DNA of 64,000 nt from Nitrospirota bacterium (GTDB lineage Bacteria > Nitrospirota > Nitrospiria > Nitrospirales > NS-4), in assembly GCA_004298335.1 (NCBI GenBank), contig SCTG01000009.1:12134-76133 (forward strand). The letters are read 5' to 3'. The notes beneath the pieces were generated by a model. It ran no database searches and was not told the origin of the DNA. It saw nothing but the letters and a program-made list of their open reading frames with translations. Within the stretch, counting starts at the first letter, position 1. Each line of letters starts with the position of its first letter. Both the position numbers and the translations under genes were made by a program. Positions 2,141 to 37,012 of the stretch are shown here, one piece after another.

Positions 2141-3388
2141 ATGGGCCATGGGGATGGGTGGAGCGAGGACAGCGAGGATGTCGAACCAATGACAGGACCC
2201 GCCCTCGGCTGCATCACCACGATTGCCGGCACCGGCGAGCCCGGCTGCTCCGGGGACGGCGGGCCCGCGACCAAGGCCGCGCTCAACGAGCCGAAGAGCG
2301 TGACCGTCGCCGGCAACTGTCTCTACATCGCCGATTCCGAAAACCACCGCATCCGCAAAGTGGACCTCGCGACCGGCGTGATTACCACCGTCGCCGGCCA
2401 GGACATGCTGGACGCGCCGGCTCCCGCCGCCGGGTTTCCTCCCCCGGCTCCGGAACATGACGAGCTCGACCCGCTGGCCGATCCCGTCAAGACGAAGGAC
2501 GACAAAGTCGTGCAGCTCGCCGACCAGAGCGGCACGGTGCGGTTCCTCGTCGGAGCGACCGAGAAGGGACGCTTCAAGGGGGACGGCGGGCCGGCCCTGT
2601 CGGCCCTGCTCAACTTCCCCTCCGCCGCAGCGGTGGACGGCCAGGGCACGCTCTACATCGCCGACACGTTCAATCACCGGGTCAGGGTCGTGGAGGGCCC
2701 CGCCGGCCTCATCCGCACGCTGGCCGGCACGGGCGCCGCGCGCTTCTCCGGAGACGGCTGGCCGCCCGACAAATATGCGCTCAACGAGCCGGTCGCGCTC
2801 GCGCTCGACGAACATCGCGGGCGGCTCTACATCGCCGACCTCGCGAACTTCCGCGTCCGCATGGTGGAGTTGAAGACCGGCATCCTCTCGACCTACGCGG
2901 GCAGCGGCGCGCAGGACTACGACGGCGACGGGCAGCCGGCGAAGCAAGCGGGCCTGACGGGCCCCAGCGGGCTGGCGCTGGACGCCGAGGGCAATCTCTA
3001 CATCGCCGACACGTTCTCCGGACGCATCCGCAAGGTGGACGCCGCGACGGGGCTGATCAGTACCGTCGCAGGCGACGGCACCGAGTACCGCTATCAGGGC
3101 GTGCCCAACGAGTTCTCGACCGGCCTCGCGCGCCCGGCCGCTATCGCGCTCGCGACCGACGGGACGCTCTACATCACGGACTCGGACAACCACCTGATCC
3201 GCAAGTGGAACCCGAAGACCAAGATCATCACCGCGGTCGCGGGCAACGGCGCGGCGCAGTTCGCGGGCGACGGCGGGCCGGCGACGGCCGCCGGCCTGAA
3301 CTATCCCTTCGGCGTGGCCCTCGACTCCGCCGGCAACCTCTACATCGCCGACACCTTCAACCACCGCATCCGGATGATCGCCGCCTGA
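2141..3388 (+). CDS. NHL-repeat beta-propeller protein
   Basis: 415 aa with about six repeats of G.GGPA..A.LN.P.GVA.D..GNLYIAD..NHRIR. No obvious signal peptide. The start could instead be the internal Met at 2189. Confidence 0.8.
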   Translation: MGHGDGWSEDSEDVEPMTGPALGCITTIAGTGEPGCSGDGGPATKAALNEPKSVTVAGNCLYIADSENHRIRKVDLATGVITTVAGQDMLDAPAPAAGFPPPAPEHDELDPLADPVKTKDDKVVQLADQSGTVRFLVGATEKGRFKGDGGPALSALLNFPSAAAVDGQGTLYIADTFNHRVRVVEGPAGLIRTLAGTGAARFSGDGWPPDKYALNEPVALALDEHRGRLYIADLANFRVRMVELKTGILSTYAGSGAQDYDGDGQPAKQAGLTGPSGLALDAEGNLYIADTFSGRIRKVDAATGLISTVAGDGTEYRYQGVPNEFSTGLARPAAIALATDGTLYITDSDNHLIRKWNPKTKIITAVAGNGAAQFAGDGGPATAAGLNYPFGVALDSAGNLYIADTFNHRIRMIAA

Positions 3389-3391: not shown

Positions 3392-4654
3392 ATGCGCCGC
3401 TTCCTGTCCTGGCTCGCCGGCCTGACCGGACACCGCCCCCCGCCAGACGCCCCGCCCGAAGCCGCGACTCCGGAACGGGGCCACACCCGGTTCGCGCTCG
3501 GCCTGTACCTACGACTGAAAGAGACCGTCGGGCCCTATGAAAACGCGCTCTGCTCGCCCTTCGCGATCGCCCTGTCACTGGCGATCGCCCAGGCCGGCGC
3601 CCGCGGCCCCACCGCCGATCAACTCACGCGCGTGCTCGAAGACATGTTGGGCGAGGAGGACTGGCAGGCGGGATTGCGCGCCCTGCGGGACTGGCTGATC
3701 GCCGGCGCCCGCAACGACGAGTACCTGTTGGAACTCGCCAATGGGCTGTGGGTCCCGGCCGGCCGGCCTCTACGAAACGAATTCCGCGAAGCTGCGGAAC
3801 GGTCCCAGGGCGCGGACGTCACGCAGACCGACTTCTCGCAAGAGGAACCCGCCCGCGTTCTGATCAACCGGTGGATGGAGGAGCGCACCCGGCAACTCTT
3901 TCACGCCGTCATCGCGCGGGGCGAGCTCACGCCGGAGACGCAACTGGTCCTGGTCACGGCCCTCTGCTTCAAGGGGTTCTGGGCCAGGCCGTTTGACGCG
4001 CAGCAAACGCTGGACGAACCGTTCTGGGTCAACCCGCACGCAAAAATCGCCGTCTCTCTGATGTGGCAGAGGGGCACGTTCCCCTACCACCAGGGCCCGT
4101 TCCATTTCGCCGACCGCGTCCAGGTGCTCGAACTCCCGTACGCCGGCGGCGAGCTGTCCATGGTCCTTCTCCTGCCGGAGGGCATCGAGGGCATCATCGA
4201 GCTGGAACATACGCTGGGAAGGCAGAAGGGGAAGCTGGACGCGTGGCTCGCCGCGCTGGAGCCGCGGGACGTGGATGTCGCGCTGCCGAAGTTTGCCGCC
4301 GGGTCACGGTTTCACTGCAACGACGCCCTCCTCGAGATGGCCCTCGGGGACGCGTTTTCGCGGGAGGCGGCGGACTTCACGGGCATGAGGCCGGAACGGG
4401 ACCTGTTTCTGTCGCACGTGTTCCATCAGGCCATGGTGGCGATCGACGAGTACGGACCGGACGGCGACGCGGTCCCCGGCGGGGGCGACGCCGGGCGGGC
4501 CGGGACCGGGGACGCGCCGCCCCGCCCCGTTCCCATGTTCAGGGCCGACCACCCGTTCCTGTTTCTCATCCGCACGAGAGCGTCCGGACGGATCCTCTTC
4601 ATGGGCCGCGTGATGGTGCCGACCGTCGCGCAAAAGTTCACGCCCGTGCTGTGA
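3392..4654 (+). CDS. Serpin family protein
   Basis: 420 aa. N-terminal SPFAIALSLAIAQAGARGPTADQL and C-terminal FRADHPFLFLIR..SGRILFMGRV serpin signatures. Starts 4 nt after the NHL gene stop. Confidence 0.85.
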   Translation: MRRFLSWLAGLTGHRPPPDAPPEAATPERGHTRFALGLYLRLKETVGPYENALCSPFAIALSLAIAQAGARGPTADQLTRVLEDMLGEEDWQAGLRALRDWLIAGARNDEYLLELANGLWVPAGRPLRNEFREAAERSQGADVTQTDFSQEEPARVLINRWMEERTRQLFHAVIARGELTPETQLVLVTALCFKGFWARPFDAQQTLDEPFWVNPHAKIAVSLMWQRGTFPYHQGPFHFADRVQVLELPYAGGELSMVLLLPEGIEGIIELEHTLGRQKGKLDAWLAALEPRDVDVALPKFAAGSRFHCNDALLEMALGDAFSREAADFTGMRPERDLFLSHVFHQAMVAIDEYGPDGDAVPGGGDAGRAGTGDAPPRPVPMFRADHPFLFLIRTRASGRILFMGRVMVPTVAQKFTPVL

Positions 4655-4721
4655 GCGCGCTTGCCTTCCCGTAGATGGAACAGGCACAATCGCAGGGCTG
4701 TCTGATCGGAGGGGCCTCCGC

Positions 4722-5942
4722 ATGACGCCACGCACGCATCTGGTCCGGGCGCTTCGCGAGGCCCGCGCGCGCACCGATGAGTTGTTCGCCATGGTGCGGC
4801 CGGACGCGCTGTACGACCGCCCGATCCCCGAACGCCACCGCATCATCTTCTACCTCGGCCACCTCGAAGCGTTCGACTGGAACCAGATCGGCGGCGGCGC
4901 ACTGGGCCTCCGGCCGTTCCACGCGTCGTTCGACAAGCTGTTTGCGTTCGGCATCGATCCGCCGGTCGGACAGCTGCCGGACGACAAGGCCTCGGACTGG
5001 CCGGCGGTGGAGGAGGTCGTCACGTACAACCAGCAAGTCCGCCTGTCCCTCAATGCCGTGCTGGACCGGGCGCCGGAGCCGATGCTCCACGTCGCCGTCG
5101 AGCACCGCCTGATGCACGCCGAGACGTTCGCGTACATCCTGCACAACGCGCCGCCGGACCGGAAGGCGCTTCCCCCGACCGCGCACCACGTCGATGGCCC
5201 CGAGCCGGTTCACAGCATGATCGAGGTCCCGGCCGGAGCGGCCACGTTGGGGCGGCCGCGTCCGAACGGCGACGGCGCATTTGGATGGGACAACGAATTC
5301 GACGCGCATGCGGTGCGCGTCCCCTCGTTCGCCATCGGCAAGCACAAAGTCACCAACGGGCAATACCTCGAGTTCGTGCAGGACGGAGCCGAGCCCCCGC
5401 CGTTCTGGACGAAGCGCGGCGATCAGTGGTACTGGCGCGCGATGGGCGGAGACATTCCGCTCCCGCTCGATTGGCCGGTCTACGTGACCTGGATGCGGGC
5501 CCTGCGCTACGCGCAGTGGGCGGGCAAGGCCCTGCCGACCGAGGCCCAGTTCCACCGCGCGGCCTACGGCACGCCGGACGGCGGGGAGCGCGCCCATCCG
5601 TGGGGCGAGGAGCCGCCCGATGAACGGCGCGGCAACTTCGATTTTCGCCGGTGGGACCCCCTGCCCGTCACGGCGACCCCGTCGGGGGACAGCGCCTTCG
5701 GCGTCTCCCAGCTCGTCGGCAACGGCTGGGAATGGACCGCGACGGCCTTCCACCCGTTCCCCGGCTTCCAGCCGTTTTCGTTCTATCCCGGCTACTCGGC
5801 CCCGTTTTTCGACGGCGCGCATTACCTCCTGAAGGGCGCCTCGCCGCAGACGGCGGCCCGGCTGCTGCGTCGCTCCTTCCGCAACTGGTACCGGCCGAAC
5901 TATCCCTACGTCTACGCCGGATTCCGGGTGGTGGAGAACTGA
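4722..5942 (+). CDS. egtB: EgtB-like sulfoxide synthase (DinB_2 + FGE-sulfatase/SUMF1 fold)
   Basis: 406 aa. N-terminal DinB-like HRIIFYLGHLEAFDW. C-terminal FGE-type GNGWEWTAT...FRNWY...YAGFRVV. Shares one nucleotide with the egtD start. Confidence 0.7.
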   Translation: MTPRTHLVRALREARARTDELFAMVRPDALYDRPIPERHRIIFYLGHLEAFDWNQIGGGALGLRPFHASFDKLFAFGIDPPVGQLPDDKASDWPAVEEVVTYNQQVRLSLNAVLDRAPEPMLHVAVEHRLMHAETFAYILHNAPPDRKALPPTAHHVDGPEPVHSMIEVPAGAATLGRPRPNGDGAFGWDNEFDAHAVRVPSFAIGKHKVTNGQYLEFVQDGAEPPPFWTKRGDQWYWRAMGGDIPLPLDWPVYVTWMRALRYAQWAGKALPTEAQFHRAAYGTPDGGERAHPWGEEPPDERRGNFDFRRWDPLPVTATPSGDSAFGVSQLVGNGWEWTATAFHPFPGFQPFSFYPGYSAPFFDGAHYLLKGASPQTAARLLRRSFRNWYRPNYPYVYAGFRVVEN

Positions 5943-6895
5943 TGCCGGCCCTTCTCGATTTCGCCCGCGACGTGCGCGACGGGCTCGGCAAAGCCGGCCA
6001 GAAGGAACTGCCGTCCAAGTATCTCTACGACGAGATCGGCACAGCGCTGTTCGAGGCCATCACCCTGCTGCCGGAGTACGGCCTCACCCGCGCGGACGAG
6101 CGCCTCCTGCGGCGGTACGCGCCGGCCATCCTCGAGCACCTGCCCCCGCCGGTGGTCGTGGCCGAACTGGGCAGTGGCAGCGGCCGCAAGACCCGCTGGC
6201 TCCTGGAAGCCCTCGCCCACCGCGAACCCGTCGCCTACTTTCCCGTCGATACCTCGCCCGCCGCCCTGGCGAACTGCCGGAAGGAACTGTCGGGTATGGG
6301 CGCGCTCAGCATCGTGGGCCTGGAAACGTCGTACCTGGACGGCCTGCGCGAGGTCGCGTCCCGGCGCCGGACCGGCCAGGCGCTGCTGGTGCTGTTCCTG
6401 GGGAGCACCGTGGGCAACTTCGAGCGCCCGGCGGCCGAACAGTTTCTGCGCGAGATCCGGCAAGGCCTGGCGCCCGGCGACGCGCTCCTGCTGGGCACCG
6501 ACCTGGAGAAGCCGGTGGCCGACCTGTTGCAGGCCTACGACGATCCCGCCGGCGTCACCGCGGCCTTCAACCTGAATCTCCTGGCCCGCATCAACCGCGA
6601 ACTCGGAGGCGACTTCTCGCTGCGGGACTTCGCGCACGAGGCCCGGTACAACGACCGCGAGCGCCGGATCGAGATGCACCTGCGCTCGAGGAAGAAGCAG
6701 ACCATCACGGTTCGAGCCGCCGGCTTCGCCGGCACGCTGGAGGAGGGCGAGACGATCTGGACCGAAGCCTGCCACAAGTACCGGACCGACGAGATTCCCG
6801 GCATGGCCCGGCGCGCCGGCTACCTGTGCGAGTCGCAGTGGGTGGACGGCGAGTGGCCCTTCGCCGAGAACCTGTGGATCGCCGCGCCGCCGTGA
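5942..6895 (+). CDS. egtD: L-histidine N-alpha-methyltransferase (EgtD family)
   Basis: The track ORF (5651..) was trimmed to ATG 5942, which overlaps the egtB TGA. N-terminus LPSKYLYDEIGTALFEAITLLPEYGLTRADERLL and ELGSGSGRKT SAM motif are typical of EgtD. Confidence 0.75.
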   Translation: MPALLDFARDVRDGLGKAGQKELPSKYLYDEIGTALFEAITLLPEYGLTRADERLLRRYAPAILEHLPPPVVVAELGSGSGRKTRWLLEALAHREPVAYFPVDTSPAALANCRKELSGMGALSIVGLETSYLDGLREVASRRRTGQALLVLFLGSTVGNFERPAAEQFLREIRQGLAPGDALLLGTDLEKPVADLLQAYDDPAGVTAAFNLNLLARINRELGGDFSLRDFAHEARYNDRERRIEMHLRSRKKQTITVRAAGFAGTLEEGETIWTEACHKYRTDEIPGMARRAGYLCESQWVDGEWPFAENLWIAAPP

Positions 6896-7638
6896 CCCCG
6901 CCCGTCTCCTTCCGGAACGTCTCCTACCGCGTCGGCGGCAAAGACATCCTGCGCGACTTCAGCCTGGACGTCGCAGCCGGCGAGACCATCGTGCTGCTGG
7001 GGCGCAGCGGCTCCGGCAAGACGACCGCGCTCAAGATGGTCAACGCCCTCCTCCGCCCCAGCGCGGGCGAGGTGATGGTGGACGGCCGGCCGACGACGAG
7101 CTGGGACCCGATCCGGCTCCGGCGCCGGATCGGCTACGTGATCCAGGAGGCGGGCCTGTTCCCACACGTCACCGTGGAGGGCAACGTCGGCCTGGTGCCG
7201 AGGCTGGAGGGGACGCCGGCGGCGGCGATCCGGACCCGCGTGCATGCCCTGCTCGACCAGGTCGGGCTGCCGCCGGCGCAGTTCGCCGCCCGCTATCCCC
7301 GCGAGCTCTCCGGCGGCCAGCGCCAGCGCGTGGGCGTCGCCCGCGCGCTCGCCGCCGACCCGCCGCTGCTGCTCTTCGACGAGCCGTTCGGCGCGCTGGA
7401 CCCGGTCACGCGCGTCGAGCTGCAGCGCCAGTTCCTGGAATTGCGCCGCCGCCTCGGCAAGACCGCGATCTTCGTGACGCACGACGTGCGGGAAGCACTG
7501 CTCGTGGCCACGCGCATCGCGCTGCTGCACGAGGGCCGGCTGGCGGTCCTGGCCGCCCCAGCGGACTTCCTCCGGGCCCGTGGCGAGGAAGCGCGCGCGT
7601 TCCTCGCCTGCCTCGATCCGCAGGCGGCGCCCCCATGA
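6892..7638 (+). CDS. ABC transporter ATP-binding protein, quaternary-amine (OpuC/ProU-like) type
   Basis: Walker A GRSGSGKTT, signature LSGGQRQRV, Walker B LLLFDEP. The proposed GTG start at 6892 overlaps the egtD stop (GTGA). The track start at 6826 would overlap egtD by 70 nt. Confidence 0.85.
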   Translation: MTPPVSFRNVSYRVGGKDILRDFSLDVAAGETIVLLGRSGSGKTTALKMVNALLRPSAGEVMVDGRPTTSWDPIRLRRRIGYVIQEAGLFPHVTVEGNVGLVPRLEGTPAAAIRTRVHALLDQVGLPPAQFAARYPRELSGGQRQRVGVARALAADPPLLLFDEPFGALDPVTRVELQRQFLELRRRLGKTAIFVTHDVREALLVATRIALLHEGRLAVLAAPADFLRARGEEARAFLACLDPQAAPP

Positions 7639-8252
7639 CGCCCGACCTCGCGCGCGAGATCCTGGACCTGACCGCGGAGCATCTCGTGCTGGTCGGCGTG
7701 GCCATGGCCATTGCCGTCGCGGTCGCCATCCCGGCCGGCATCCTGCTCACGCGGCGCGCGCCCCTGCAGCGGTGGGTGATCGGCTTCGCCAACGTCATGC
7801 AGACCGTCCCCAGCCTCGCGCTGTTCGGGTTCCTGATCCCGCTCCCGTTCATCGGCGGCATCGGGAAGCACACGGCGATCGTCGCGCTGGTGCTGTACGC
7901 GCTGCTGCCCGTGCTGCGCAACACGCTGACGGGCATCCTGGGCGTAGACCCGGCGGTCCGCGAATCGGCGGTCGCCATGGGCATGACGGGGCGGCAGCTC
8001 CTCTTCGAGGTGGAACTGCCGCTGGCGGCGCGCACGATCCTGGCCGGCGTGCGGGTGGCGACCGTGACGACGATCGGCACGGCCACGATCGCGGCGGCCA
8101 TCGGCGGCGGCGGCCTGGGCGTGTTCATCTTCCGCGGCCTGGCCTCCGTGGACTCGACGTTGATCCTCGCGGGGGCCCTGCCCGCCGCGCTCATCGCCCT
8201 GGCGGCCGACGGAGGACTCGGATGGGTGGAGAAAAAATTCTCGCCGGCCTGA
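7635..8252 (+). CDS. ABC transporter permease (BPD_transp_1, OpuCB-like)
   Basis: 205 aa polytopic membrane protein. ATGA overlap with the upstream ATPase gene. Conserved cytoplasmic loop ESAVAMGMTGRQLLFEVELPLA. Confidence 0.85.
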   Translation: MTPDLAREILDLTAEHLVLVGVAMAIAVAVAIPAGILLTRRAPLQRWVIGFANVMQTVPSLALFGFLIPLPFIGGIGKHTAIVALVLYALLPVLRNTLTGILGVDPAVRESAVAMGMTGRQLLFEVELPLAARTILAGVRVATVTTIGTATIAAAIGGGGLGVFIFRGLASVDSTLILAGALPAALIALAADGGLGWVEKKFSPA

Positions 8253-9112
8253 TCGCGGCCGCGGGACTCAACGCGATCATCGGCTGCGCCCGGGGCACGC
8301 CGCTCACCGTCGGCTCCAAGAACTTCACGGAGCAGGTGATCCTCGGCGAGATCGTCGCCCAGCACGTGAGCCACCGGCTGTCCCGGCGCGTGGACCGCAA
8401 GCTGAACCTAGGCGGCACGCTGCTCGCGCACCAGGCGATGCTGCAGGGCGGGCTCGATCTCTATCCCGAATACACCGGCACGGCGCTCACGGCGATCCTG
8501 AAACGGCCTCTCTCCTCGGACCCCAATGACGTGCTGGCCCGCGTGCGGAGCGAATATCAGCAGCGCTTCAACATCGTGTGGCTGGAGCCGCTGGGGTTCA
8601 ACAACACCTTCGCCATGGTGATCCGCGGCGAGGACGCGCGCCGGCACGGGATCGGATCGTTGAGCGAGGCGGCCCGGCGTGACGGCGGCTGGACGCTCGG
8701 AGTCGGCTACGAATTCCAGCAGCGTCCGGACGGCCTGCCCGGCCTGCTGAAGACCTACAAGCTGCCCGTCAAGGGGTCGCCGAAGACCATGGACCTCGGG
8801 CTGCTCTACAAGGCGCTCGAGCAGAAGCAGGTGGACATGGTGGCGGCCAACGCGACGGACGGCCTGCTGTCGGTGATGGACGTGAAAATTCTCACGGACG
8901 ACAAGCGGTACTTCCCCCCGTACCAGGCGGCCCTGACGGTGCGGGCCGAGGCGCTGGCGGCGCATCCCGGACTGAAAGACGCGCTCGATCTGCTGTCGGG
9001 GAAATTCTCGGACGAGATCATGCGGGCGCTGAACCACCAGGTGGACGGCAAGCACCGGCCGGTCAACGAAGTGGCGCTCACGTTCTTGCGGGCGAGCGGG
9101 TTCCTGGCGTGA
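8222..9112 (+). CDS. Glycine-betaine/quaternary-amine type substrate-binding lipoprotein (OpuCC-like)
   Basis: The track ORF (7580..) was trimmed to ATG 8222, preceded by a GGAGG RBS. Signal peptide with lipobox IIGC, then GSKNFTEQVILGEI...YPEYTGTAL, typical of OpuBC-type binding proteins. Confidence 0.85.
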   Translation: MGGEKILAGLIAAAGLNAIIGCARGTPLTVGSKNFTEQVILGEIVAQHVSHRLSRRVDRKLNLGGTLLAHQAMLQGGLDLYPEYTGTALTAILKRPLSSDPNDVLARVRSEYQQRFNIVWLEPLGFNNTFAMVIRGEDARRHGIGSLSEAARRDGGWTLGVGYEFQQRPDGLPGLLKTYKLPVKGSPKTMDLGLLYKALEQKQVDMVAANATDGLLSVMDVKILTDDKRYFPPYQAALTVRAEALAAHPGLKDALDLLSGKFSDEIMRALNHQVDGKHRPVNEVALTFLRASGFLA

Positions 9113-9127
9113 GGCTCGTGAGGGAAA

Positions 9128-9925
9128 TTAGAACCGCCAGCTCAGGCCCCCGGTGATACCGTACTCCGGGGCACCGTTAGATAATCCTGTCTCTATCGCG
9201 AAATTCAGTCGCAGGGCAGATGTCGCCTTGTAATTCACCGCGAAGAGAAGGTCCCGCGGATTCACCTGGCCCGGGACGAGCGTCCGCCACTCCTCGTAAT
9301 ACACGCTGCCCATCAGCGCTTCCGTGAAGTTATAGCCCAGGCCCAGATCGTAGTTCCATCGGTTCTGCAGGGTCACGCCCGCCGGCTGTCCGATGATCGT
9401 ATAGCCCAGATCGAAGAAGCCCGTCCATTTCTCGGCAAACTTCTTCGAGATTTCCGTCCCAATGCCTTCATCCCACTCACCGGTGCCCAAGCCCTTATCC
9501 GCATCGGCCGTCGGGGCCTTCAAGCGGGCGACCAGGGCGACGGTGGGGAGGAACGTACGCTCATCGAGAATATAGTAGCGCCCCTGCATGATGACATCGC
9601 CGATCCCCTCATTGGTGACCCGTGCCGGCGTCCGCTGGACTCTTCTGGCAAAGGCCGGAACGCCCCCCACGAGCGTCACGCGGCCGTCGCTGGCGACACT
9701 GATATACGGAACGATGAGCGTCAGATCCCCGTCCCGGAAAAGCCGCCGGAGCGAGAACGGCATATAGAGGATGTCCGTCCGGGTGTTCGTACCGTAATCC
9801 CCGCTCGTGTATGTGGCCGACAGGCCCACCTGCCAGGTTTCCTCGGCCGCTTCGCTGGGCAGGGGACTCCCCGCCAGCAAGAAGGCGCCAAGCCCCGCGG
9901 CGGCGGCAATCGCGAGCAGCCGCAT
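9128..9925 (-). CDS. Outer-membrane beta-barrel protein (MetA-pathway/transporter-like family)
   Basis: Start trimmed to ATG 9925 (GGAGG RBS, signal peptide MRLLAIAAAAGLGAFLLAG). Alternating beta-strand pattern and a C-terminal ...GGLSWRF aromatic terminus. Confidence 0.6.
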   Translation of the reverse strand: MRLLAIAAAAGLGAFLLAGSPLPSEAAEETWQVGLSATYTSGDYGTNTRTDILYMPFSLRRLFRDGDLTLIVPYISVASDGRVTLVGGVPAFARRVQRTPARVTNEGIGDVIMQGRYYILDERTFLPTVALVARLKAPTADADKGLGTGEWDEGIGTEISKKFAEKWTGFFDLGYTIIGQPAGVTLQNRWNYDLGLGYNFTEALMGSVYYEEWRTLVPGQVNPRDLLFAVNYKATSALRLNFAIETGLSNGAPEYGITGGLSWRF

Positions 9926-10285
9926 CTTCGTCCTCCCGGTCAGGCCAGTCGATGGGAGCATGTCCGTTCCTCCTGCCATCCTCGTGCAAAGATAATTCTA
10001 GTAGACAAAAAACCTTGAGTAAAATCAAGCAAAATGTTTTCACGCTCTGTCATTTTCTGCGCTAAGTTGTCCCGGAAGCGCCGGACTTCGTCCTGTGTCT
10101 CATCGCATGACGCGCCCTCCACGTTGTATGGGTACGCCTACAGTTCCAAGTATGAGAAAAACAACGCGCGCCTGTTGATGTGAGTCTAAACCCTGAATGC
10201 GGATGCCTTCAGTTTTCTGCGCCGTGCGCGCGACCCGGCGAGTCAGCTTTTCCCATCTTGTGCGAATACCCGACATTTCCGACGT

Positions 10286-10301
10286 GGCACCATCCTTGCC
10301 C
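10286..10301 (+). promoter_or_regulatory. Candidate sigma54 (-24/-12) promoter
   Basis: TGGCAC-CATCC-TTGC matches the TGGCAC-N5-TTGC consensus exactly. It lies 78 nt upstream of ATG 10379 in an AT-rich intergenic region. Confidence 0.55.
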
Positions 10302-10378
10302 ATATAAGATAAGACGAACGGGCCTGCCTCCCGATAAGGCGAGCGGGCATCACATCAGAGCGAGAAAGGAGAAGAGCC

Positions 10379-10981
10379 ATGAAGACATCGCTTCAGACCG
10401 TTGGCGCGGGCGCGCTTTTCGTATCGGCGTTTCTCGTCACCGGCGCGTTCGCGCAGACCACTCCCCCGGCTCCGCCGACGTCCCCTCCGGCCGTGACGTC
10501 AACGCCGCTGAAGGAAGACATCGCGAAGGACCGCCAGGAAATCAGGGCGGACAAACAGGAGATCAAGGGCGATCTGAAGGAGGTCGCGCAGGACCGCCAG
10601 GCGTTGCGGCAGGATCTCCGGTCCGGCGCCAGCCAGGACAAAATCCAGGCGGATCGACAGAAACTGCGCAACGACGTGCAAGAGCTCCGGAAAGACCGGC
10701 GGGAGCTGCAGCGGGACAAGCAAGACCTCCGGAGCGACCGGCGGGAACTGCGCGAAGACCGTCGGGACGGCCGGGACGACCGCGACAACAAGAGCAATAA
10801 GGGAGGCGCATTGCGCGGCCTTGACCGCGCGGACCAGGTCGCGGGCGAACACGGTCAACAGGGCCGTGACAATGCGCGTGACAAGCAAGACCTGCGCGCC
10901 GACCGGAAGGACCTGAAAGCGGATCGTCCGGAACGGCCCAATCGTCCGGAACGTCCGGAACGCCCCAACCGGTCCCGGTAG
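10379..10981 (+). CDS. Secreted charged-repeat protein (hypothetical)
   Basis: GAAAGGAG RBS. Signal peptide ...FLVTGAFAQ. Degenerate D-[RK]-Q-x-[LI]-R-x-D repeats, a GLDRADQVAGEHGQQGRDNAR motif, and a C-terminal RPERPNRPERPERPNR repeat. Confidence 0.7.
   Translation: MKTSLQTVGAGALFVSAFLVTGAFAQTTPPAPPTSPPAVTSTPLKEDIAKDRQEIRADKQEIKGDLKEVAQDRQALRQDLRSGASQDKIQADRQKLRNDVQELRKDRRELQRDKQDLRSDRRELREDRRDGRDDRDNKSNKGGALRGLDRADQVAGEHGQQGRDNARDKQDLRADRKDLKADRPERPNRPERPERPNRSR
10520..10790 (+). repeat. Intragenic degenerate repeats encoding DRQxLRxD-type charged heptad-like units
   Basis: Recurring gaccgccagg / gaccggcggga(a/g)ctgc blocks in the DNA and repeated KQEI, DRQAL, DRQKL, DRRELQ, KQDLRSDRRELREDRRD units in the protein. 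Confidence 0.6.
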
Positions 10982-10994
10982 GGAGTCGTGGCAC

Positions 10995-11020
10995 GAGGCG
11001 GGAGCGAACGCTCCCGCCTC
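10995..11020 (+). terminator. Putative terminator hairpin
   Basis: Perfect GC-rich palindrome gaggcgggagcg-aa-cgctcccgcctc, 14 nt after the stop codon. No following T-tract. Confidence 0.45.
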
Positions 11021-13352: not shown

Positions 13353-14804
13353 GTGCCGGCCATGCAATTCACGTCCTACGATCCGGAAAACTTCTACGAC
13401 GAGACGTTCGAGGGCCGGGGCCGGCCGCGACCCGGCTGCACGCTCGTGATGGAGAAGATCGCCGCGCTGACCGACGGGGAGCTCAAGCGGCGCCAGCAGG
13501 CGGCGGAGCGGGTCCTGCTGGACATGGGCGTGACGTTCGGCGTGCAGGGGGAGGGGACCAGCCATGAGCACATCTTCCCCTTCGATATCGTGCCCCGGAT
13601 CGTCGAGGCCGCCGTGTGGGAACGGCTCGAGCGGGGCCTGCGCCAGCGCGTGACGGCGCTGAACTGCTTCCTGCAGGATGTCTATCACGACAAGAAGATC
13701 ATCAAGGACGGGATCATTCCGGGAGACCTCGTTGCCTCCAGCAAGGGCTTTCTCAAAGCCTGCGAAGGGCTGAATCCGCCGAAAGGGATCTGGTGCCACA
13801 TCGCCGGGATCGATCTGGTGCGGGTCGCCGACGGCACGTTCCATGTCCTCGAGGACAACATGCGGTGCCCGTCCGGCGTGGCCTACGTGCTGGAAGCCCG
13901 CCAGGTCATGAAGCGCACCTTTCCGGAGTTGTTCGAGGCCTCCCGCGTGCGGCCGGTGGATGAGTACCCCGGCCGGCTCCTGGATACCCTGCAGTGTCTC
14001 ACCGATCGGCCGGATCCGACGGTCGTCATCCTGACGCCCGGGATCTACAATTCGGCCTACTACGAGCATTCGTTCCTGGCCCAGAAGATGGGCGTGGAGC
14101 TCGTCGAAGGCGCCGATCTGGTCGCCGCGGACGGGTTTGTGCAGATGCGGACCACCCGGGGCCTGAAGCGGGTCGACGTGATCTATCGCCGGGTCAACGA
14201 CGAGTTTCTCGACCCGCTCGTGTTCCGGGAAGAGTCCCTGCTGGGGGTGCCCGGTCTCATGGACGCGTACCGGAAGGGGCGCGTGGCCCTGGCGAACGCC
14301 CCGGGCACGGGCGTGGCGGACGACAAGGCCATTTACGCCTACGTGGAGAAATTCATCCGCTACTACCTCGGAGAGGAGCCCGTGATCCCGAACGTGCCCA
14401 CCTATCTCTGCTCGGATGAGAAGGATCGCGCCTATGTCCTGGACCATCTGGACCAGCTCGTGGTCAAGGCCACCAACGAAGCCGGCGGGCACGGGATGCT
14501 GATCGGCTCGCAGGCCGGCCGGCGTGAGCGCGAGGAGTTTGCCGGCCGCATTCTAGCCGACCCCCGGAACTATATCGCCCAGCCGGTGCTGGCGCTCTCC
14601 CGGGTCCCCACGATTTGCGGGGACCATTTCGAAGGGCGTCATGTTGACCTTCGTCCGTACATTTTGTATGGTCGCGACATTCATGTGATGCCCGGCGGAT
14701 TGACCCGCGTCGCGCTGCGAAAAGGCTCGCTGGTGGTCAATTCGTGCCAGGGCGGCGGCAACAAAGACACCTGGGTGTTGTCCGGAAGGGACAAGCCGTG
14801 CTAA
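13353..14804 (+). CDS. Circularly permuted ATP-grasp type 2 protein
   Basis: 483 aa. FHVLEDNMRCPSGVAYVLE and VALANAPGTGVADDKAIY are characteristic of the cpATP-grasp family that accompanies alpha-E and transglutaminase genes. Confidence 0.85.
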   Translation: MPAMQFTSYDPENFYDETFEGRGRPRPGCTLVMEKIAALTDGELKRRQQAAERVLLDMGVTFGVQGEGTSHEHIFPFDIVPRIVEAAVWERLERGLRQRVTALNCFLQDVYHDKKIIKDGIIPGDLVASSKGFLKACEGLNPPKGIWCHIAGIDLVRVADGTFHVLEDNMRCPSGVAYVLEARQVMKRTFPELFEASRVRPVDEYPGRLLDTLQCLTDRPDPTVVILTPGIYNSAYYEHSFLAQKMGVELVEGADLVAADGFVQMRTTRGLKRVDVIYRRVNDEFLDPLVFREESLLGVPGLMDAYRKGRVALANAPGTGVADDKAIYAYVEKFIRYYLGEEPVIPNVPTYLCSDEKDRAYVLDHLDQLVVKATNEAGGHGMLIGSQAGRREREEFAGRILADPRNYIAQPVLALSRVPTICGDHFEGRHVDLRPYILYGRDIHVMPGGLTRVALRKGSLVVNSCQGGGNKDTWVLSGRDKPC

Positions 14805-15778
14805 GCCGGGTGGCCAACGCAATCTACTGGATGAACCGTTACATCGAGCGGGCCGAAAATTACGCCCGCTTCATCGACGTCAAGCTTGCGCTCACGCTGG
14901 ACATGCCCGAGGGCACGGCCGAGCAGTGGGATCCGCTGGTGCGAACCACCGGGGACGATGCGGTGTTCGCCGAGCGGTTCGGCAAGCCGACGAAGGAGAA
15001 CGTGATCCGCTTTCTGGCCGCCGACACCGACAATCCGAACTCCATCCTGTCCTGCCTCTCGGCCGCCCGGCAGAACGCCCGCTCGGTCCGGGAGATCATT
15101 TCCTCCGAGATGTGGGAGCAGGTCAATCGCTCGTACCTGACGGTCACGGACGCCGTCTCCGGCGGGCGGTTCATGCAGAACCCGCAGGGCTTCTTCGCCG
15201 AGGTCAAAACGGCGAGCCACCTGTTCGGGGGCATCACGGACGCCACGATGTCCCACGGCGAGGGGTGGCACTTCGCGCGCCTCGGCCGTCTCCTGGAACG
15301 CGCCGACAAGACCTCGCGGATTCTCGACGTGAAGTATTTCATCCTCCTGCCGGACGTGTCCGACGTCGGCACGCCCTTCGACAACATCCAATGGTCCGCC
15401 CTGCTGAAGTCGGCCAGCGCGCTGGAGATGTACCGCAAGCATTACGGCCGCATCACGCCTCACCAGGTCGTCGAATTTCTGATCCTCAACCCGAATTTCC
15501 CCCGGGCCATCCGGTACTGTCTCATCAAAGGGGAGGATTCGCTGCACGCGATCTCGGGCTCGGACGGCGGCACCGTCCAGAACCTCGCGGAACGGCGGCT
15601 GGGCCGGCTGCGGGCGGACCTGGACTACGCCGACATCGGGGAGATCACCGCGCAAGGGTTGCACGAATTCCTCGACAACTTCCAGGCCGAGCTCAACCGG
15701 GTCGGCGATGCGATCTTCGAGACCTTCTTCGCGCTGCGCCCCGTCGAGGGCGCCATGACCAAAGGGGACCTCCAATGA
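14798..15778 (+). CDS. Alpha-E domain protein
   Basis: Start trimmed to GTG 14798, a 7-nt overlap with the upstream stop. The N-terminus LSRVANAIYWMNRYIERAENYARF is the hallmark of alpha-E proteins. Confidence 0.8.
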   Translation: MLSRVANAIYWMNRYIERAENYARFIDVKLALTLDMPEGTAEQWDPLVRTTGDDAVFAERFGKPTKENVIRFLAADTDNPNSILSCLSAARQNARSVREIISSEMWEQVNRSYLTVTDAVSGGRFMQNPQGFFAEVKTASHLFGGITDATMSHGEGWHFARLGRLLERADKTSRILDVKYFILLPDVSDVGTPFDNIQWSALLKSASALEMYRKHYGRITPHQVVEFLILNPNFPRAIRYCLIKGEDSLHAISGSDGGTVQNLAERRLGRLRADLDYADIGEITAQGLHEFLDNFQAELNRVGDAIFETFFALRPVEGAMTKGDLQ

Positions 15779-16548
15779 CTTTCTGTCTGGGCATGAAAGT
15801 TCAGGACGGGCTGATCGGCATCGCCGACACGCGGGTGACGACGGGCGTGGAATGCATCACGGCGCGGAAGGTCTCCATCCACCAGCACGGCCGGCACTCG
15901 ATGTTCCTGATGACCTCGGGCCTACGGTCGGTCCGGGACAAGGCGGTCACCTACTTCGAAGAGGTGATCGGCGAGGGCGACCAGACGTTCGACAAGCTGT
16001 ACAAGGCGGTGAACGTGCTCGCGACGCAGATCCGGCGCGTGGCCGAGGAGGACAGGGAGCCCCTCGACAAGGGCGGGCTGCCCTTCAATCTCCACGCGCT
16101 CGTCGGCGGCCAGCTGGAGAACGATCCGGAACACAAGCTGTACCTGCTGTACCCGGCGGGCAACTGGGTCGAGGTCAGCGAGGGCACCCCATACTGCATC
16201 ATCGGCGAATCCGGCTACGGCAAGCCCCTGCTCGACCGGGTGCTCCGCTACGAGTCGTCCATGGATTTGGCCTTGAAGGTCGGGTTTCTCGCCTTTGACG
16301 CCACCCGGACCAGTTCGACGAGCGTCGAGTATCCCCTCGACGTGGTCGCCTACCGGACCGACACCTTCGACATCGTCGAATCCCGTTTTGAGAAGGACGA
16401 CCTCCTGAACAGCTCGGCCTGGTGGCAGGCCCGGATCGCCGAATCGGTCGATCAGCTGCCGGCCAAGTGGACGGAACGCGTGCTCGCCCCGCTCTCCAAC
16501 CACACCACCCGGTCACCACGCCCGGATCGCACCCCGGGTCCCACCTGA
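15775..16548 (+). CDS. Anbu-type proteasome beta-subunit homologue (Ntn hydrolase)
   Basis: ATGA overlap with the alpha-E stop. MTFCLGMKVQDGLIGIADTRVT would expose Thr1 after Met removal, with Asp17 and a Lys near position 31. About 257 aa, as for Anbu. Confidence 0.8.
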   Translation: MTFCLGMKVQDGLIGIADTRVTTGVECITARKVSIHQHGRHSMFLMTSGLRSVRDKAVTYFEEVIGEGDQTFDKLYKAVNVLATQIRRVAEEDREPLDKGGLPFNLHALVGGQLENDPEHKLYLLYPAGNWVEVSEGTPYCIIGESGYGKPLLDRVLRYESSMDLALKVGFLAFDATRTSSTSVEYPLDVVAYRTDTFDIVESRFEKDDLLNSSAWWQARIAESVDQLPAKWTERVLAPLSNHTTRSPRPDRTPGPT

Positions 16549-17402
16549 TGACGTTCGAGGTTCGCCACACGACTCGTTATACCTATAGCAAGCCTGTGTT
16601 CCTGGAACCGCATCTCCTCCGATTGCGGCCGCGCTCCGACGCAGCCCAGCGCCTCGTGAAGTTCGACCTGGCGGTCTTTCCGGAGCCTGCGGGCCGCTCG
16701 GAATGCCTGGACCTGGACGGGAATTGTGTCTGCCAGCTCTGGTTCGACAGCGCCACAGATCGCCTGGAGGTCCGCGCGGCGTCCGTGGTCGAGACCATCC
16801 GGACCAACCCCTTTGATTTCCTGATTGCCCCCGCAACCGGGCAGGTCCTGCCGATGCGATATCCCGCGACGCTGGTCCCGTCCCTGAGACCATACCTGGA
16901 CAGCCCGCCCTCCGTGCCGGACGCCGTGGCGAAGTTCGGAACCGACCTGGCCGAAGCCGTGAAGTGGAAAACGCTCCCGTTTCTTTCGGCCCTGACCACC
17001 CGCCTTCCCCAACAGTGCACGGTGGCCATTCGGGAAGAAGGCGACCCGCTGCAGCCGGACATCGTCCTGGCCCAACGGCAGGGATCCTGCCGGGACCTGA
17101 CCCTCCTCTTTATCACCGCATGCCGTGCCGTGGGGCTCGCCGCCCGCTTTGTGAGCGGCTATCAGGAAGGCGATCCCGACCAGTCCCGAAGAGACCTGCA
17201 CGCCTGGGCCGAGGTCTACCTTCCCAGCGGCGGATGGCGTGGGTACGATCCGACTCTTGGGTTGGTCGTTGGGGATCGGCATATCGCGCTGGCGGCCGGG
17301 CCCACCTTTCGCGACGCCTCGCCGGTGACGGGCACCTTCCGGGGAACCGGCGCCACCGCGACCCTGCAGTCCGACATTACGATCACCGTCACAGTGCCAT
17401 AA
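16548..17402 (+). CDS. Transglutaminase-like cysteine peptidase family protein
   Basis: Its start shares one nucleotide with the Anbu stop. Bact_transglu_N-like start MTFEVRHTTRYTYS. Catalytic core QGSCRDLTLLF ... DLHAWAEVY ... GYDPT (Cys-His-Asp). Confidence 0.85.
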   Translation: MTFEVRHTTRYTYSKPVFLEPHLLRLRPRSDAAQRLVKFDLAVFPEPAGRSECLDLDGNCVCQLWFDSATDRLEVRAASVVETIRTNPFDFLIAPATGQVLPMRYPATLVPSLRPYLDSPPSVPDAVAKFGTDLAEAVKWKTLPFLSALTTRLPQQCTVAIREEGDPLQPDIVLAQRQGSCRDLTLLFITACRAVGLAARFVSGYQEGDPDQSRRDLHAWAEVYLPSGGWRGYDPTLGLVVGDRHIALAAGPTFRDASPVTGTFRGTGATATLQSDITITVTVP

Positions 17403-30825: not shown

Positions 30826-32256
30826 TCAAGAGCCGGCCCCGCCCGTTCCGAAAGCCCGTTTCCCCACTTTGCTGTGGCGGAAGCCGTAGCTGGCATAGAG
30901 GATCAGGCCGGCGGCGGCCCAGATCACGAACCCGACCTTGGTGATAACGGGCAGATACCCGATCAAACCCAGGCAGGCCAGCATCCCCAAAATCGGCACG
31001 GCCGGCACGAAGGGCGCCCGGAAAGGGCGCCGCAAGTCCGGCCGCGTCCGACGCAGGACCAGCACGGCGCCACATACCAGCGTGAAGGCGAACAGCGTGC
31101 CGATGTTAGTGAGCTCCGCGGCGACCCCGATCGGGACGAAGCCCGCCAGGACCGCCACCGTGGCGCCCGTGACCAGCGTCGCCCGGTGCGGCGTGCCGTA
31201 CCGGGGATGCACGGCGGAGAGCCACGGCGAGAGCAGCCCGTCCCGGGACATGGCGTAGAACACCCGGATCTGCCCCAGGAGCATCACGATCAGCACGCTG
31301 GTGATCCCGGCCACCGCGCCGACCGCCACCAGCGCGCTCCCCCACCGGTATCCGACCGCGTTCAGGGCCTCGGCAACCGGCGCCTTCACGTGGATCTTCC
31401 CATATGGCACGATGCCCGTCAGGACCGCGGCGACGGCGACGTAGAGGAGGGTGCAGAGGACCAGCGAGACGATGATCCCGATCGGCACGTCGCGCTGGGG
31501 GTTCTGTGCTTCCTCGGCAGTGGTCGAGACCGCGTCGAAGCCGATGTAGGCGAAAAAGATGATGGCGGCGGCGGCCCCGACCCCCGCGAACCCGTTCGGC
31601 ATGAAGGGCGACCAGTTGGCGGGATCCACCGCGAAGACGCCGACCGCGATGAAGAACAGCACGACGGCGATCTTGATCGTCACGATCACACCCGTCACGC
31701 GGGCGCTCTCCTTGATCCCGATCACGAGCAGACAGGTCAGCGCCAGCACGATCAGGACGGCCGGCAGGTTGACGAGGCCCCCCTCGTGGGGCGCATTGAT
31801 CAGCGGCGCCGGCAGGTGGACCCCGATGCGTTCCAGGAGGCTGACGAGATAGCCCGACCAGCCGATGGATACCGCCACGCAGGCGATTCCGTATTCCAGC
31901 ACCAGGCTCCACCCCGTGACCCACGCGAACAGTTCCCCCAGCGTGGCGTAGGAATAGGTGTAGGCCGAGCCCGCCACCGGGATCATGGACGCGAACTCGG
32001 CGTAGCAGAGCGCGGCCAGCAGGCAGGCGGTGCCCGACAGGATGAAGGAGAGGATCAGGCCGGGCCCCGCGCCGGGCCGGTCGCCGTCGCCGACGGCCGC
32101 GGTCCCGACCAGGACGAAGACGCCCGTGCCGATGATCGCGCCGATCCCAAGGGCGGTGAGGTCGAAGGCCGTCAGGGTCCGCTTCAGCTTGTGCGTCTGG
32201 GCTTCGTAGTCGCCGAGGATCTGCTCGATGGATTTGGTGCGAAAGGCCCAGCGCAT
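30826..32256 (-). CDS. APC-superfamily amino acid permease (cationic amino acid transporter-like)
   Basis: About 12 TM segments. N-terminus LKRTLTAFDLTALGIGAIIGTGVFVL. The start was trimmed to ATG 32256 so it no longer overlaps the upstream gene. Confidence 0.85.
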   Translation of the reverse strand: MRWAFRTKSIEQILGDYEAQTHKLKRTLTAFDLTALGIGAIIGTGVFVLVGTAAVGDGDRPGAGPGLILSFILSGTACLLAALCYAEFASMIPVAGSAYTYSYATLGELFAWVTGWSLVLEYGIACVAVSIGWSGYLVSLLERIGVHLPAPLINAPHEGGLVNLPAVLIVLALTCLLVIGIKESARVTGVIVTIKIAVVLFFIAVGVFAVDPANWSPFMPNGFAGVGAAAAIIFFAYIGFDAVSTTAEEAQNPQRDVPIGIIVSLVLCTLLYVAVAAVLTGIVPYGKIHVKAPVAEALNAVGYRWGSALVAVGAVAGITSVLIVMLLGQIRVFYAMSRDGLLSPWLSAVHPRYGTPHRATLVTGATVAVLAGFVPIGVAAELTNIGTLFAFTLVCGAVLVLRRTRPDLRRPFRAPFVPAVPILGMLACLGLIGYLPVITKVGFVIWAAAGLILYASYGFRHSKVGKRAFGTGGAGS

Positions 32257-32260
32257 GCGG

Positions 32261-33013
32261 TTACGCGGGGCGCCTGCGGGTCGCGCGCGCGGCTTTGACG
32301 AGCGCCTCAAAGAGGGCCCGGTGGACGCGATGGCGCGGATAGAGATATTCCGGGTGCCACTGGACCCCGATGAAGAACCGGCGGGATCTGTCCTCGAGCG
32401 CCTCGATCACCCCGTCGGGCGCCACGGCGCTGACCGCCAGCCCGCGGGGGACGGCTTTCACCGCCTGGTGGTGCGAGCTGTTCACCTGGACGGAGCCGCG
32501 CCCGAGCACGTCATGCAGCCGCGAGCGCCGCGCGACCGCGACGGGATGGCAGGTCCCCGTCGCCGGCCCTTTCATGCGATGCGGGAGCGCGCCGGCCACC
32601 TGCCCGCCGATGTCCTGCACGAGCGTGCCACCCAGGGCCACGTTCATGAGCTGCATGCCCCCGCAGATGCCCAGGACCGGCAGGTCCCGCTTGCGCGCCT
32701 CCGCGACCAGCGCGAACTCCGACTCCGTCCGCTCTCTGCTCATGACCTTGAACTTGAAACGCTTGCGCTCGCCGTAGCGGCGGGGATCGATGTCCGGCCC
32801 GCTGCCGGTCAGCAGCAGGCCGTCCAACGTATCGAGCAGGGCCGCGCCGAGCGCGCGGCCGCTGAAGATGGGCAGAATGACCGGGATGCCGCCGGCCGCC
32901 GCAATCGCCGCGACGTACCGGTTCCGGATGAAGACCGTGGCCTCGCCTTCCCCGCCATCCCGGTCGCCTCCGGGATTGAAATCCGGAGCGATCCCAATGA
33001 CAGGTTTACGCAT
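32261..33013 (-). CDS. Class-I glutamine amidotransferase, gamma-glutamyl hydrolase (peptidase C26/PuuD-like)
   Basis: 250 aa. LPVLGICGGMQLMNVALGG nucleophile elbow and FIGVQWHPE motif. Confidence 0.8.
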   Translation of the reverse strand: MRKPVIGIAPDFNPGGDRDGGEGEATVFIRNRYVAAIAAAGGIPVILPIFSGRALGAALLDTLDGLLLTGSGPDIDPRRYGERKRFKFKVMSRERTESEFALVAEARKRDLPVLGICGGMQLMNVALGGTLVQDIGGQVAGALPHRMKGPATGTCHPVAVARRSRLHDVLGRGSVQVNSSHHQAVKAVPRGLAVSAVAPDGVIEALEDRSRRFFIGVQWHPEYLYPRHRVHRALFEALVKAARATRRRPA

Positions 33014-36891: not shown

Positions 36892-37012
36892 CGCACAATC
36901 ACTCTTAATCCTAGCATGAGCGGGATATACCGGTAGTCTACTCATTATTTAGACGCGGAAACTGGGCTTAACGACTGAGGGTCCGCCGAGGCGGACGCAC
37001 CGAGACTTGGTT

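Follow-up and report, generated by a model that had tools for sequence, protein, structure and literature searches.

Genes for an EgtB-like sulfoxide synthase and EgtD are recurrently linked to a betaine-type importer in Nitrospirota and Acidobacteriota

We describe here five consecutive genes of a soil Nitrospirota bacterium (contig SCTG01000009.1 of assembly GCA_004298335.1), which occupy positions 4722-9112 (+) of the 64-kb stretch of DNA that was analyzed, hereafter the window. They encode an EgtB-like sulfoxide synthase, the histidine methyltransferase EgtD, and the ATPase, permease and lipoprotein binding protein of an ATP-binding cassette (ABC) importer of the betaine type (Table 1). 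Every junction overlaps. The TGA stop of the egtB-like gene (5940-5942) and the ATG of egtD (5942-5944) have the A at 5942 in common (TGATG), the egtD TGA (6893-6895) is overlapped by the GTG start of the ATPase gene (6892-6894; GTGA), the ATPase TGA (7636-7638) is overlapped by the permease ATG (7635-7637; ATGA), and the permease and binding-protein genes overlap by 31 nt. An earlier sequence-only reading of this DNA had described the same five genes with overlapping stop and start codons; all of its coordinates and junctions are as claimed, and its gene identities hold when judged by Pfam and NCBIfam domain assignments. Gene calls on related contigs have identical starts and overlaps, including that of the 248-aa ATPase, and a public record from a 'Nitrospirae bacterium' metagenome-assembled genome (P0001) is identical to the 296-aa binding protein. 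The layout suggests that the five genes are co-translated. Overlapping junctions are by themselves ordinary for operons, and it is the repeated occurrence of the pairing, described below, that goes beyond chance. Searches in and around the operon for Rfam families, sigma-70-like promoters and terminators gave nothing convincing, the single terminator-like match lying inside egtB and being below the count expected by chance.

Table 1. Genes and ribosome-binding-site-like motifs of the egt-transporter operon, in window coordinates.
Feature	Position	Strand	Product length	Basis or remark
Shine-Dalgarno-like GGAGGGG	4708..4714	+		7 nt before egtB start; read from sequence
egtB-like gene	4722..5942	+	406 aa	Pfam DinB_2 + FGE-sulfatase
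egtD	5942..6895	+	317 aa	TIGR03438, Pfam Methyltransf_33
ABC ATPase gene (GTG start)	6892..7638	+	248 aa	Pfam ABC_tran
ABC permease gene	7635..8252	+	205 aa	Pfam BPD_transp_1
Shine-Dalgarno-like GGAGGA, inside permease gene	8211..8216	+		5 nt before binding-protein start; read from sequence
Lipoprotein binding-protein gene, OpuAC family	8222..9112	+	296 aa	Pfam OpuAC 7.6e-56

By the NCBI equivalog criterion the second gene is egtD, encoding an L-histidine N-alpha-methyltransferase that is predicted to make hercynine. The protein scores 300.3 bits against TIGR03438, above the cut-off of 290.9, with residues 7-308 matching positions 2-297 of the 301-position profile, and it matches Pfam Methyltransf_33 at 4.6e-91.

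The EgtB-like protein has the N-terminal DinB_2 and C-terminal FGE-sulfatase domains in Pfam. Among solved structures it scores highest against type IV EgtB (EgtB-IV; 8vih, 205 bits, 1.9e-59; 8vig, 183 bits), followed by OvoA (165), OvsA (148), EgtB-I (132) and EgtB-II (64 bits), with the formylglycine-generating enzymes (FGE) at ~36 bits; the alignment to 8vih consists of two aligned stretches. The protein misses the NCBIfam equivalog cut-offs for EgtB (TIGR03440, 179.7/360), OvoA (TIGR04344, 210.3/400) and SenA (NF041186, 191/420), and its top NCBIfam match is the OvoA N-terminal model (ovoA_Nterm). The putative iron ligands H47, H128 and H132, assigned from the family, lie in the sequences FYLGH and EHRLMH, which align with the same motifs of EgtB-IV, and are at least 90% conserved across 27 relatives.

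Sulfoxide synthases divide into an OvoA-like branch, comprising OvoA and EgtB-IV, and an EgtB-like branch (10.1101/2024.04.10.588772). Enzymes that accept hercynine carry an Asn followed by a bulky aromatic residue (..NWF.. in EgtB-IV), while an Ala is conserved at this place in OvoA and OvsA, which accept histidine, in OvoA within ..(Y/F)AF.. (10.1101/2024.04.10.588772). The window sequence FRN388W389YRP aligns residue for residue with YRNWFRP of 8vih and 8vig, FRNWDHP of EgtB-I and YRNFFEP of SenA. For the published type IV composite motif, RxYH--DxHxHYxNWFx, the C-terminal positions were mapped, and Tyr390 of the window protein falls at the Phe position (position 16); in the 27-sequence alignment of the window EgtB-like protein and its relatives the residue after Asn-Trp is Phe by majority. 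Judged by PDB ranking, the protein is a member of the OvoA-like branch with solved type IV EgtB as its nearest relative, and its predicted site is of the hercynine type. The difference between 205 bits for EgtB-IV and ~36 for FGE, together with the presence of the Asn-Trp motif, sets it apart from generic SUMF1/FGE proteins, a grouping that the sequence-only reading had named as counting against its interpretation, and the hercynine-type Asn-Trp site is consistent with the coupling to EgtD. The enzyme thus shares with the cyanobacterial type IV EgtB proteins (8VIH/8VIG) its branch, its domain architecture and the Asn-Trp motif, but differs from them in being ~60 residues shorter (406 versus 463-468 aa), in having Tyr rather than Phe after Asn-Trp, in reaching only 205 bits to 8vih and in occurring in Nitrospirota and Acidobacteriota.

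An EgtB of type IV adjacent to EgtD resembles the short, cysteine-dependent pathway, in which EgtA and EgtC are unneeded because EgtB uses cysteine. The absence of egtA, egtC and egtE from the window, noted from the sequence at the outset, held as far as tested: a Pfam scan of ~40 of the larger open reading frames (ORFs) of the window, with small ORFs only partly covered, gave no Aminotran_5 (class V, EgtE type), glutamate-cysteine ligase or amidotransferase, and the EgtE-like protein of a related cluster had no tblastn match in the window. With no C-S lyase in the window, the lyase step would be encoded elsewhere or carried out by a non-dedicated enzyme. Ergothionase-like genes are absent from the window and from all of the egt-linked and stand-alone transporter loci considered below.

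The conservation of the pairing was assessed with a 27-sequence EgtB alignment, assembled by searching 1.84 billion cluster representatives and used for a profile scan of one genome per GTDB species. The best 80 EgtB loci, from species-level genomes with 53-75% EgtB identity, fall in the Nitrospirota (Nitrospiria, Nitrospirales, Nitrospira) and Acidobacteriota (Bryobacterales, Terriglobia, Acidiferrales and others). Linkage was scored when transporter genes lay at most 6 kb from egtB, by tblastn with the five window proteins, so that the counts vary with the tblastn thresholds and with where the contigs end. A transporter is present within 6 kb of egtB at 59 of the 69 assessable loci (86%), the remaining 11 of the 80 being too truncated to judge. 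The arrangement is not fixed. The window order of egtB, egtD, ATPase, permease and binding protein, downstream on the same strand, is seen at 29 loci; at 15 the transporter lies upstream, divergent from egtB over a short shared intergenic region (~225 nt in L025); at three it is convergent downstream, at two upstream on the same strand, and ten carry a Nitrospirales variant. Contigs whose binding proteins are 78-84% identical to that of the window carry all five genes in the window order, between different flanks. Clustering of the ORFs from all 80 loci revealed no further gene, such as a regulator or lyase, that is recurrently tied to egtBD.

In the Bryobacterales loci L023, L031, L032, L034, L039 and L041 the genes run egtB-egtD-ATPase-permease with no OpuAC-type gene after the permease, the gene in that position in L041 encoding an unrelated 516-aa protein. 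The binding protein of these bacteria may be encoded elsewhere or may have been lost.

The Nitrospirales variant is exemplified by L033 (5361-11212 of that locus, on the chromosome OZ244941.1 of a Nitrospirales metagenome-assembled genome), where an ATPase gene is followed by a gene for a 520-aa fusion of substrate-binding domain (SBD) and transmembrane domain (TMD), then egtD and an egtE-like gene, with egtB divergent; in this one operon, egtD and the egtE-like gene thus come after the transporter genes. The EgtD of this locus is more distant (35-39% identity to that of the window), and the EgtE-like protein is a class V aminotransferase. The same variant cluster also occurs in L022, L047, L059 and L070. 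In neighbor-joining trees of the binding proteins, computed without support values, the main linked group from Nitrospirota and Acidobacteriota (46-80% identical to the window protein) is a single clade, the Nitrospirales variant makes up another that is more distant, and one Eisenbacteria locus lies further out.

By our own estimate, which was not computed but reflects the few such systems per genome, a betaine-type ABC system would fall within 6 kb of a given gene in ~1% of genomes. Chance adjacency is ruled out by the 59 of 69 linked loci and by the multiple gene orders, and a functional link between the transporter and egtBD is strongly backed by this conserved, rearranged synteny in two phyla. 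That different members of the transporter family stand beside egt genes on at least two occasions argues for a link through the substrate over shared regulation alone. The arrangement had been called unusual from the window alone; this holds against the literature searched, but within Nitrospirota and Acidobacteriota it is the rule.

In the reverse direction, a profile built from the linked binding proteins was run against metagenome contigs. Among the neighborhoods of the best 80 matches, 18 are egt-linked, 9 are unlinked with at least 4.5 kb on both sides, 14 are assessable on one side only and 39 are too short. The unlinked binding proteins are 50-57% identical to that of the window and are nested in the main clade as a few subclades. 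The transporter clade is thus mostly, not exclusively, adjacent to egtBD. At the stand-alone loci (L111, L123, L137, L140, L147, L152, L156, L159 and L164), where 5-8 kb of flank was examined on each side, the neighbors are unrelated housekeeping genes, among them those for PhoH and phosphoglucose isomerase.

The binding protein starts with a lipoprotein signal (MGGEKILAGLIAAAGLNAIIGC) whose lipobox reads I-I-G-C22. Its solved relatives are the engineered sensor scaffolds iAChSnFR/iNicSnFR (~210 bits), 8dp6 (172; an 'osmoprotection protein' that we take to be H. pylori EgtU), B. subtilis OpuCC (169), A. fulgidus ProX (AfProX; 147), OpuBC (145), L. monocytogenes Lmo1422 (138) and S. pneumoniae EgtUC (SpEgtUC; 130-137 bits). 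These matches place the protein in the ProX/OpuC/EgtU subgroup of the OpuAC family. Two relatives that are 77-80% identical to it (P0029 and P0040) carry a Pro/Gly-rich insertion of 15-25 residues after about residue 97, which is absent from the window protein and from the solved homologs.

We mapped the ligand pocket by aligning the contacts made in the ergothioneine complex of SpEgtUC (PMC9732360, PMC12922746) onto the window protein and 49 egt-linked homologs; the SpEgtUC sequence (7TXL) was recovered by a PDB query with a Ligilactobacillus EgtU homolog. The corresponding residues of the window protein are K33, N34, F35, G65, T66, Y84, T87, F126, N128, F130, E164, R168, D170, L192, N210 and Y234. 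The carboxylate clamp is kept as K33, T87 and R168 (K242, T296 and R379 in SpEgtUC), as are E164 (E375, the hydrogen-bond partner of the imidazole N-H when ergothioneine is bound), D170 (D381), T66 (T275) and N128 (N339); Y84 (F293) and Y234 (Y443) occupy cage positions. Across the 49 linked homologs the Lys and Thr of the clamp and the Glu are invariant and the clamp Arg is replaced by His in one. The clamp and Glu are common to AfProX and therefore do not discriminate between the EgtU and AfProX types.

Elsewhere the pocket departs from that of SpEgtUC: I243 is N34 here, the invariant G244 is F35, T274 is G65, Y337 is F126, Y341 is F130, P401 is L192 and the cage residue Y419 is N210. In SpEgtUC the substitution G244F cuts affinity ~100-fold and substitutions of I243 do so 30- to 1000-fold, and a 'Y-to-F switch' at F293/Y337 distinguishes EgtU from glycine-betaine binders of the AfProX type (PMC9732360). 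The window protein and all 49 linked homologs have Phe, Tyr and Phe (F35, Y84 and F126) at the G244, F293 and Y337 positions. Judged by its residues at G244, I243 and F293/Y337, the window protein resembles AfProX and not SpEgtU.

The four-aromatic cage is incomplete: Y84, F130 and Y234 are present, while the fourth position (Y419) is N210, and is Asn or Ser in 39 of the 49 linked homologs. The combination of Phe at 341, Leu at 401 and Asn (Ser in a few) at 419, giving three aromatics rather than four, is fixed across the main linked clade, and 39 egt-linked homologs share the pocket signature of the window protein. The binding domain of the Nitrospirales variant keeps Y341 and Y419 and so the full four-aromatic cage. 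Retention of the Lys/Thr/Arg clamp implies a carboxylate next to the ammonium, as in an amino-acid betaine or an amino acid, and the clamp, the Glu and the three aromatics together fit an alpha-carboxylate betaine rather than choline or carnitine. Loss of the bulky Tyr at 419 may open room for a ligand side chain. From sequence, ergothioneine, hercynine, another betaine and histidine are all candidate ligands.

In the ATPase, ABC_tran is the sole Pfam family over cut-off, and the best NCBIfam match, to the proV subfamily TIGR01186, covers only profile positions 3-224 of 363. As the match ends at 224, the ATPase lacks the C-terminal CBS regulatory module that typifies the osmoregulated OpuA, OpuC and ProV ATPases, which argues weakly against classical osmotic gating. 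The permease is encoded by a single gene, with the choline and ProW permeases as its nearest NCBIfam models, and presumably forms a homodimeric membrane domain. Since binding-protein-dependent ABC systems are as a general rule importers, the transporter probably works in the direction of import rather than export.

The sequence-only reading had seen here a complete quaternary-amine importer, related it to the EgtUV type and proposed a comparison of its pocket with those of known binders. The importer of betaine type is indeed complete, with the ATPase, the permease and the OpuAC lipoprotein all present. Assignment to the EgtUV type is not sustained, given the separate lipoprotein, the Phe at G244, the lack of the Y-to-F switch and the cage Tyr replaced by Asn. 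The pocket comparison gave a divided result, with the clamp and Glu as in ergothioneine and betaine binders but neither the hallmarks of SpEgtU nor the canonical four-tyrosine cage of choline and betaine binders.

A possible clue to the ligand comes from plasmids of the Rhizobiales. The best homologs of the binding protein in a plasmid collection, from Rhizobium and Martelella (43-44% identity), directly follow hutC and a gene annotated as histidine ammonia-lyase. The encoded lyase is under the HutH equivalog cut-off (382/539), scores 265 bits with the ergothionase 6S7J against ~238 for true histidases, and reads GSIGAADLAPL where lyases forming the 4-methylideneimidazole-5-one (MIO) group carry Ala-Ser-Gly. 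On these features the related binding protein would sit in an apparent degradation locus for a histidine betaine, ergothioneine or hercynine. The clusters share with the window the K-N-F motif and the carboxylate clamp; they differ in their catabolic context, in having two permeases and a second binding protein, and in having Ala or Tyr at position 419. As an indication of the ligand this context is suggestive only, because these proteins hold no specific sister position to the egt-linked clade in the neighbor-joining tree and lower-scoring homologs of the binding protein occur in other contexts. The 'hutH' genes resembling ergothionase-type trimethylammonia-lyases lie at 5303-6808 of L006 (Rhizobium leguminosarum plasmid) and 4366-5877 of L087 (Martelella mediterranea plasmid), and each is followed by an OpuAC-type binding protein gene, an ornithine-cyclodeaminase-family gene and an ABC transporter. 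The missing cage Tyr was considered as a specific link between the window protein and these ergothionase-linked proteins and was ruled out, as the Martelella protein has Tyr there and the two groups are not sisters in the neighbor-joining tree.

EgtUV (S. pneumoniae SPD_1642-1643; Helicobacter pylori) is likewise a type I ABC importer of OpuAC subcluster F-III with one kind of permease, and the equivalents of EgtU residues K242, T275, T296, N339, E375, R379, D381 and Y443 are conserved in the window protein. In EgtU, however, TMD and then SBD are joined in one polypeptide, whereas the window encodes a separate 205-aa permease and 296-aa lipoprotein, and the fused protein of the Nitrospirales variant has the reverse order, SBD then TMD. 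EgtUV was described in bacteria that are unable to make ergothioneine (PMC9732360), whereas the window transporter lies inside a biosynthetic operon; the SpEgtU paper (PMC9732360) makes no mention of EgtB or EgtD.

AfProX, OpuCC and OpuBC belong to the same fold family and give similar scores (145-169 bits); AfProX shares the Phe at the G244 position and the Tyr at the F293 position, and the Bacillus Opu binding proteins are lipoproteins, as in the window. By comparison with these proteins, one cage tyrosine is Asn or Ser here and another is Phe; OpuB and OpuC have two permease genes rather than one; the ATPase here is without the CBS module; and the genomic linkage is to egtBD rather than to osmotic-stress genes. 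The genomic organization has a well-established counterpart in ectoine biosynthetic clusters, which in many genomes are recurrently flanked by ectoine importers (PMC13342039). These clusters (with EhuABCD, TeaABC/UehABC or EctI) also place solute synthesis genes beside importer genes, though for a different solute and with other enzymes and transporter families. We found no description of an egtBD-linked ABC importer in the literature searched, an absence which is not proof of novelty. Both enzymes add new members to families already known, and producer-plus-importer clustering is established for ectoine.

We propose, with about an even chance of being correct on this sequence evidence, that the importer of the operon recaptures or scavenges ergothioneine or hercynine. 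In such a system, which would join the two opening steps of ergothioneine synthesis to a dedicated type I ABC importer, EgtD would trimethylate histidine to hercynine, and the type-IV-like EgtB would join cysteine to C2 of hercynine using O2, with the C-S lyase step encoded elsewhere or provided by a non-dedicated pyridoxal phosphate-dependent lyase. The ATPase, the single permease and the lipid-anchored binding protein would import an alpha-amino-acid betaine, taken to be ergothioneine and/or hercynine. The cell would thereby recapture compound that has leaked or been released, and would scavenge what fungi and other microbes leave in the soil. External hercynine is a workable feedstock, as E. 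coli carrying an ergothioneine synthase took up supplied hercynine and made more product from it than with co-expressed EgtD (PMC9516567). The identity of the ligand and the physiological role of the importer are in this proposal deduced from genomic context and pocket residues.

Several observations weigh against this proposal. No transporter lies near egtBD at ten of the assessable loci, whose flanks are long enough in both directions, and a binding-protein gene is missing from six of the 29 loci with the window order, all from Bryobacterales. Conversely, nine loci carry stand-alone three-gene transporter operons of the same clade and with the same pocket signature but no egt gene in their flanks. 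The binding protein is by overall score no nearer to solved ergothioneine binders than to choline and betaine binders, and the high-affinity determinants of SpEgtUC are missing from it (G244 to Phe, F293 to Tyr, Y337 to Phe and I243 to Asn). Finally, structure prediction yielded no pocket model, the predicted local distance difference test score (pLDDT) being ~38 both from the single sequence and with 48 close homologs.

A more specific version of the proposal is a hercynine salvage loop, in which the importer would return hercynine to the cell and EgtB would re-thiolate it with cysteine. Ergothioneine sacrificed as an antioxidant, at the envelope or beyond it, would decay to hercynine, fungi may supply hercynine as well, and the loop would spare the three S-adenosylmethionine (SAM) equivalents and the histidine of the de novo route through EgtD. 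We regard the loop as a whole as unlikely.

The best-surviving alternative, in our view somewhat improbable, is that the transporter is a general compatible-solute importer for glycine betaine or proline betaine, co-regulated with egtBD in desiccation, osmotic or oxidative stress and having no substrate link to it. The pocket is like that of the AfProX glycine-/proline-betaine binders at K33, F35, Y84, T87, E164 and R168, OpuCC, AfProX and a choline/betaine-type scaffold are among its nearest solved relatives, database sources label the protein a glycine betaine transporter component, and the clade also occurs in stand-alone operons. These points have to be set against the Asn or Ser that stands in for one of the four cage tyrosines across the main clade, the ATPase without a CBS module and the single permease, unlike OpuB and OpuC. 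Moreover, co-regulation alone poorly explains why two or three transporter lineages have been recruited to egt genes in varied orders, one of them preceding egtD-egtE in the same operon.

A transporter for L-histidine, or for partly methylated histidine, would instead couple the supply of the EgtD substrate to synthesis. A possible precedent is a betaine-type ABC system of Sinorhizobium meliloti, reported as a histidine transporter that also takes up betaine and proline (cited in PMC5596199). The imidazole-contacting Glu and the carboxylate clamp are both present, and N210 in place of the cage Tyr, beside the change of Y341 to Phe, could act as a hydrogen-bond acceptor suiting an N-H ammonium. 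Nevertheless, three aromatic cage residues are kept, as in betaine binders, the egt-linked Nitrospirales variant has the four-aromatic cage expected for a quaternary ammonium, and the Rhizobiales relatives adjoin an ergothionase-like lyase without the MIO motif and not a true histidase. We consider histidine import decidedly unlikely.

That the EgtB-like enzyme makes another product, as an OvoA-type 5-histidylcysteine synthase or a synthase of some other thio-histidine, might be argued from its scores below all the NCBIfam equivalog cut-offs, its top match to the OvoA N-terminal model, the Tyr at position 16 of the composite motif and the lack of a C-S lyase in the window (larger ORFs scanned; EgtE tblastn), but is very improbable given that its best solved relatives are two EgtB-IV structures, that it has Asn-Trp at the place of the Ala conserved in OvoA and OvsA, which accept histidine, that it has no OvoA C-terminal methyltransferase domain, that translational coupling ties it to a bona fide EgtD and that related clusters contain an EgtE-like gene.

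The surroundings of the operon are varied. A gene for a 420-aa bacterial serpin (3392-4654, +) lies 67 nt upstream of egtB and follows an NHL-repeat gene (2141-3388); the serpin gene looks like a recent insertion, because in the close relative L003 the NHL gene runs straight to egtB. The GC content, ~0.70-0.74 within the operon, falls to 0.61-0.63 over window positions 8500-11000, a stretch that covers a convergent outer-membrane-channel-like gene of the Phenol_MetA_deg family (9128-9979, -) and an ORF with no family match (10180-10800, +). Further along, the window contains a trio of genes for a circularly permuted ATP-grasp protein (CP_ATPgrasp_2), an Alpha-E domain protein and a transglutaminase-like protein (13353-17402, +), and a gene for an 804-aa STAND-type NTPase (AAA_16/NACHT) with C-terminal TPR repeats (37007-39421, +). 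It also encodes a trifunctional-type PutA with proline dehydrogenase and aldehyde dehydrogenase (57253-61047, +), an APC-family amino-acid permease (30826-32310, -) and a class I SAM methyltransferase (33453-34424, -), none of which shows a link to the egt operon.

Bacterial ergothioneine uptake has so far been known from EgtU-type transporters, in species described as non-producers. If the module described here, conserved in phyla that are abundant in soil, is confirmed, its binding protein would be a candidate for a second family of ergothioneine/hercynine binding proteins. Were the salvage loop to operate, the protein would exemplify a second structural mode of recognizing histidine betaines, independent of the EgtU one and with Phe, Phe, Leu and Asn at the 244, 341, 401 and 419 positions as its signature, and the stand-alone copies of the transporter would mark scavengers. 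Should the ligand prove to be an ordinary betaine, what remains is a stress operon whose parts are regulated together. The importer and the compact, cysteine-dependent EgtB are potential parts for engineered production and biosensors. Recapture or scavenging of ergothioneine or hercynine, if true, would suggest that these compounds are traded or recycled in soil, their ultimate source for plants and diet.

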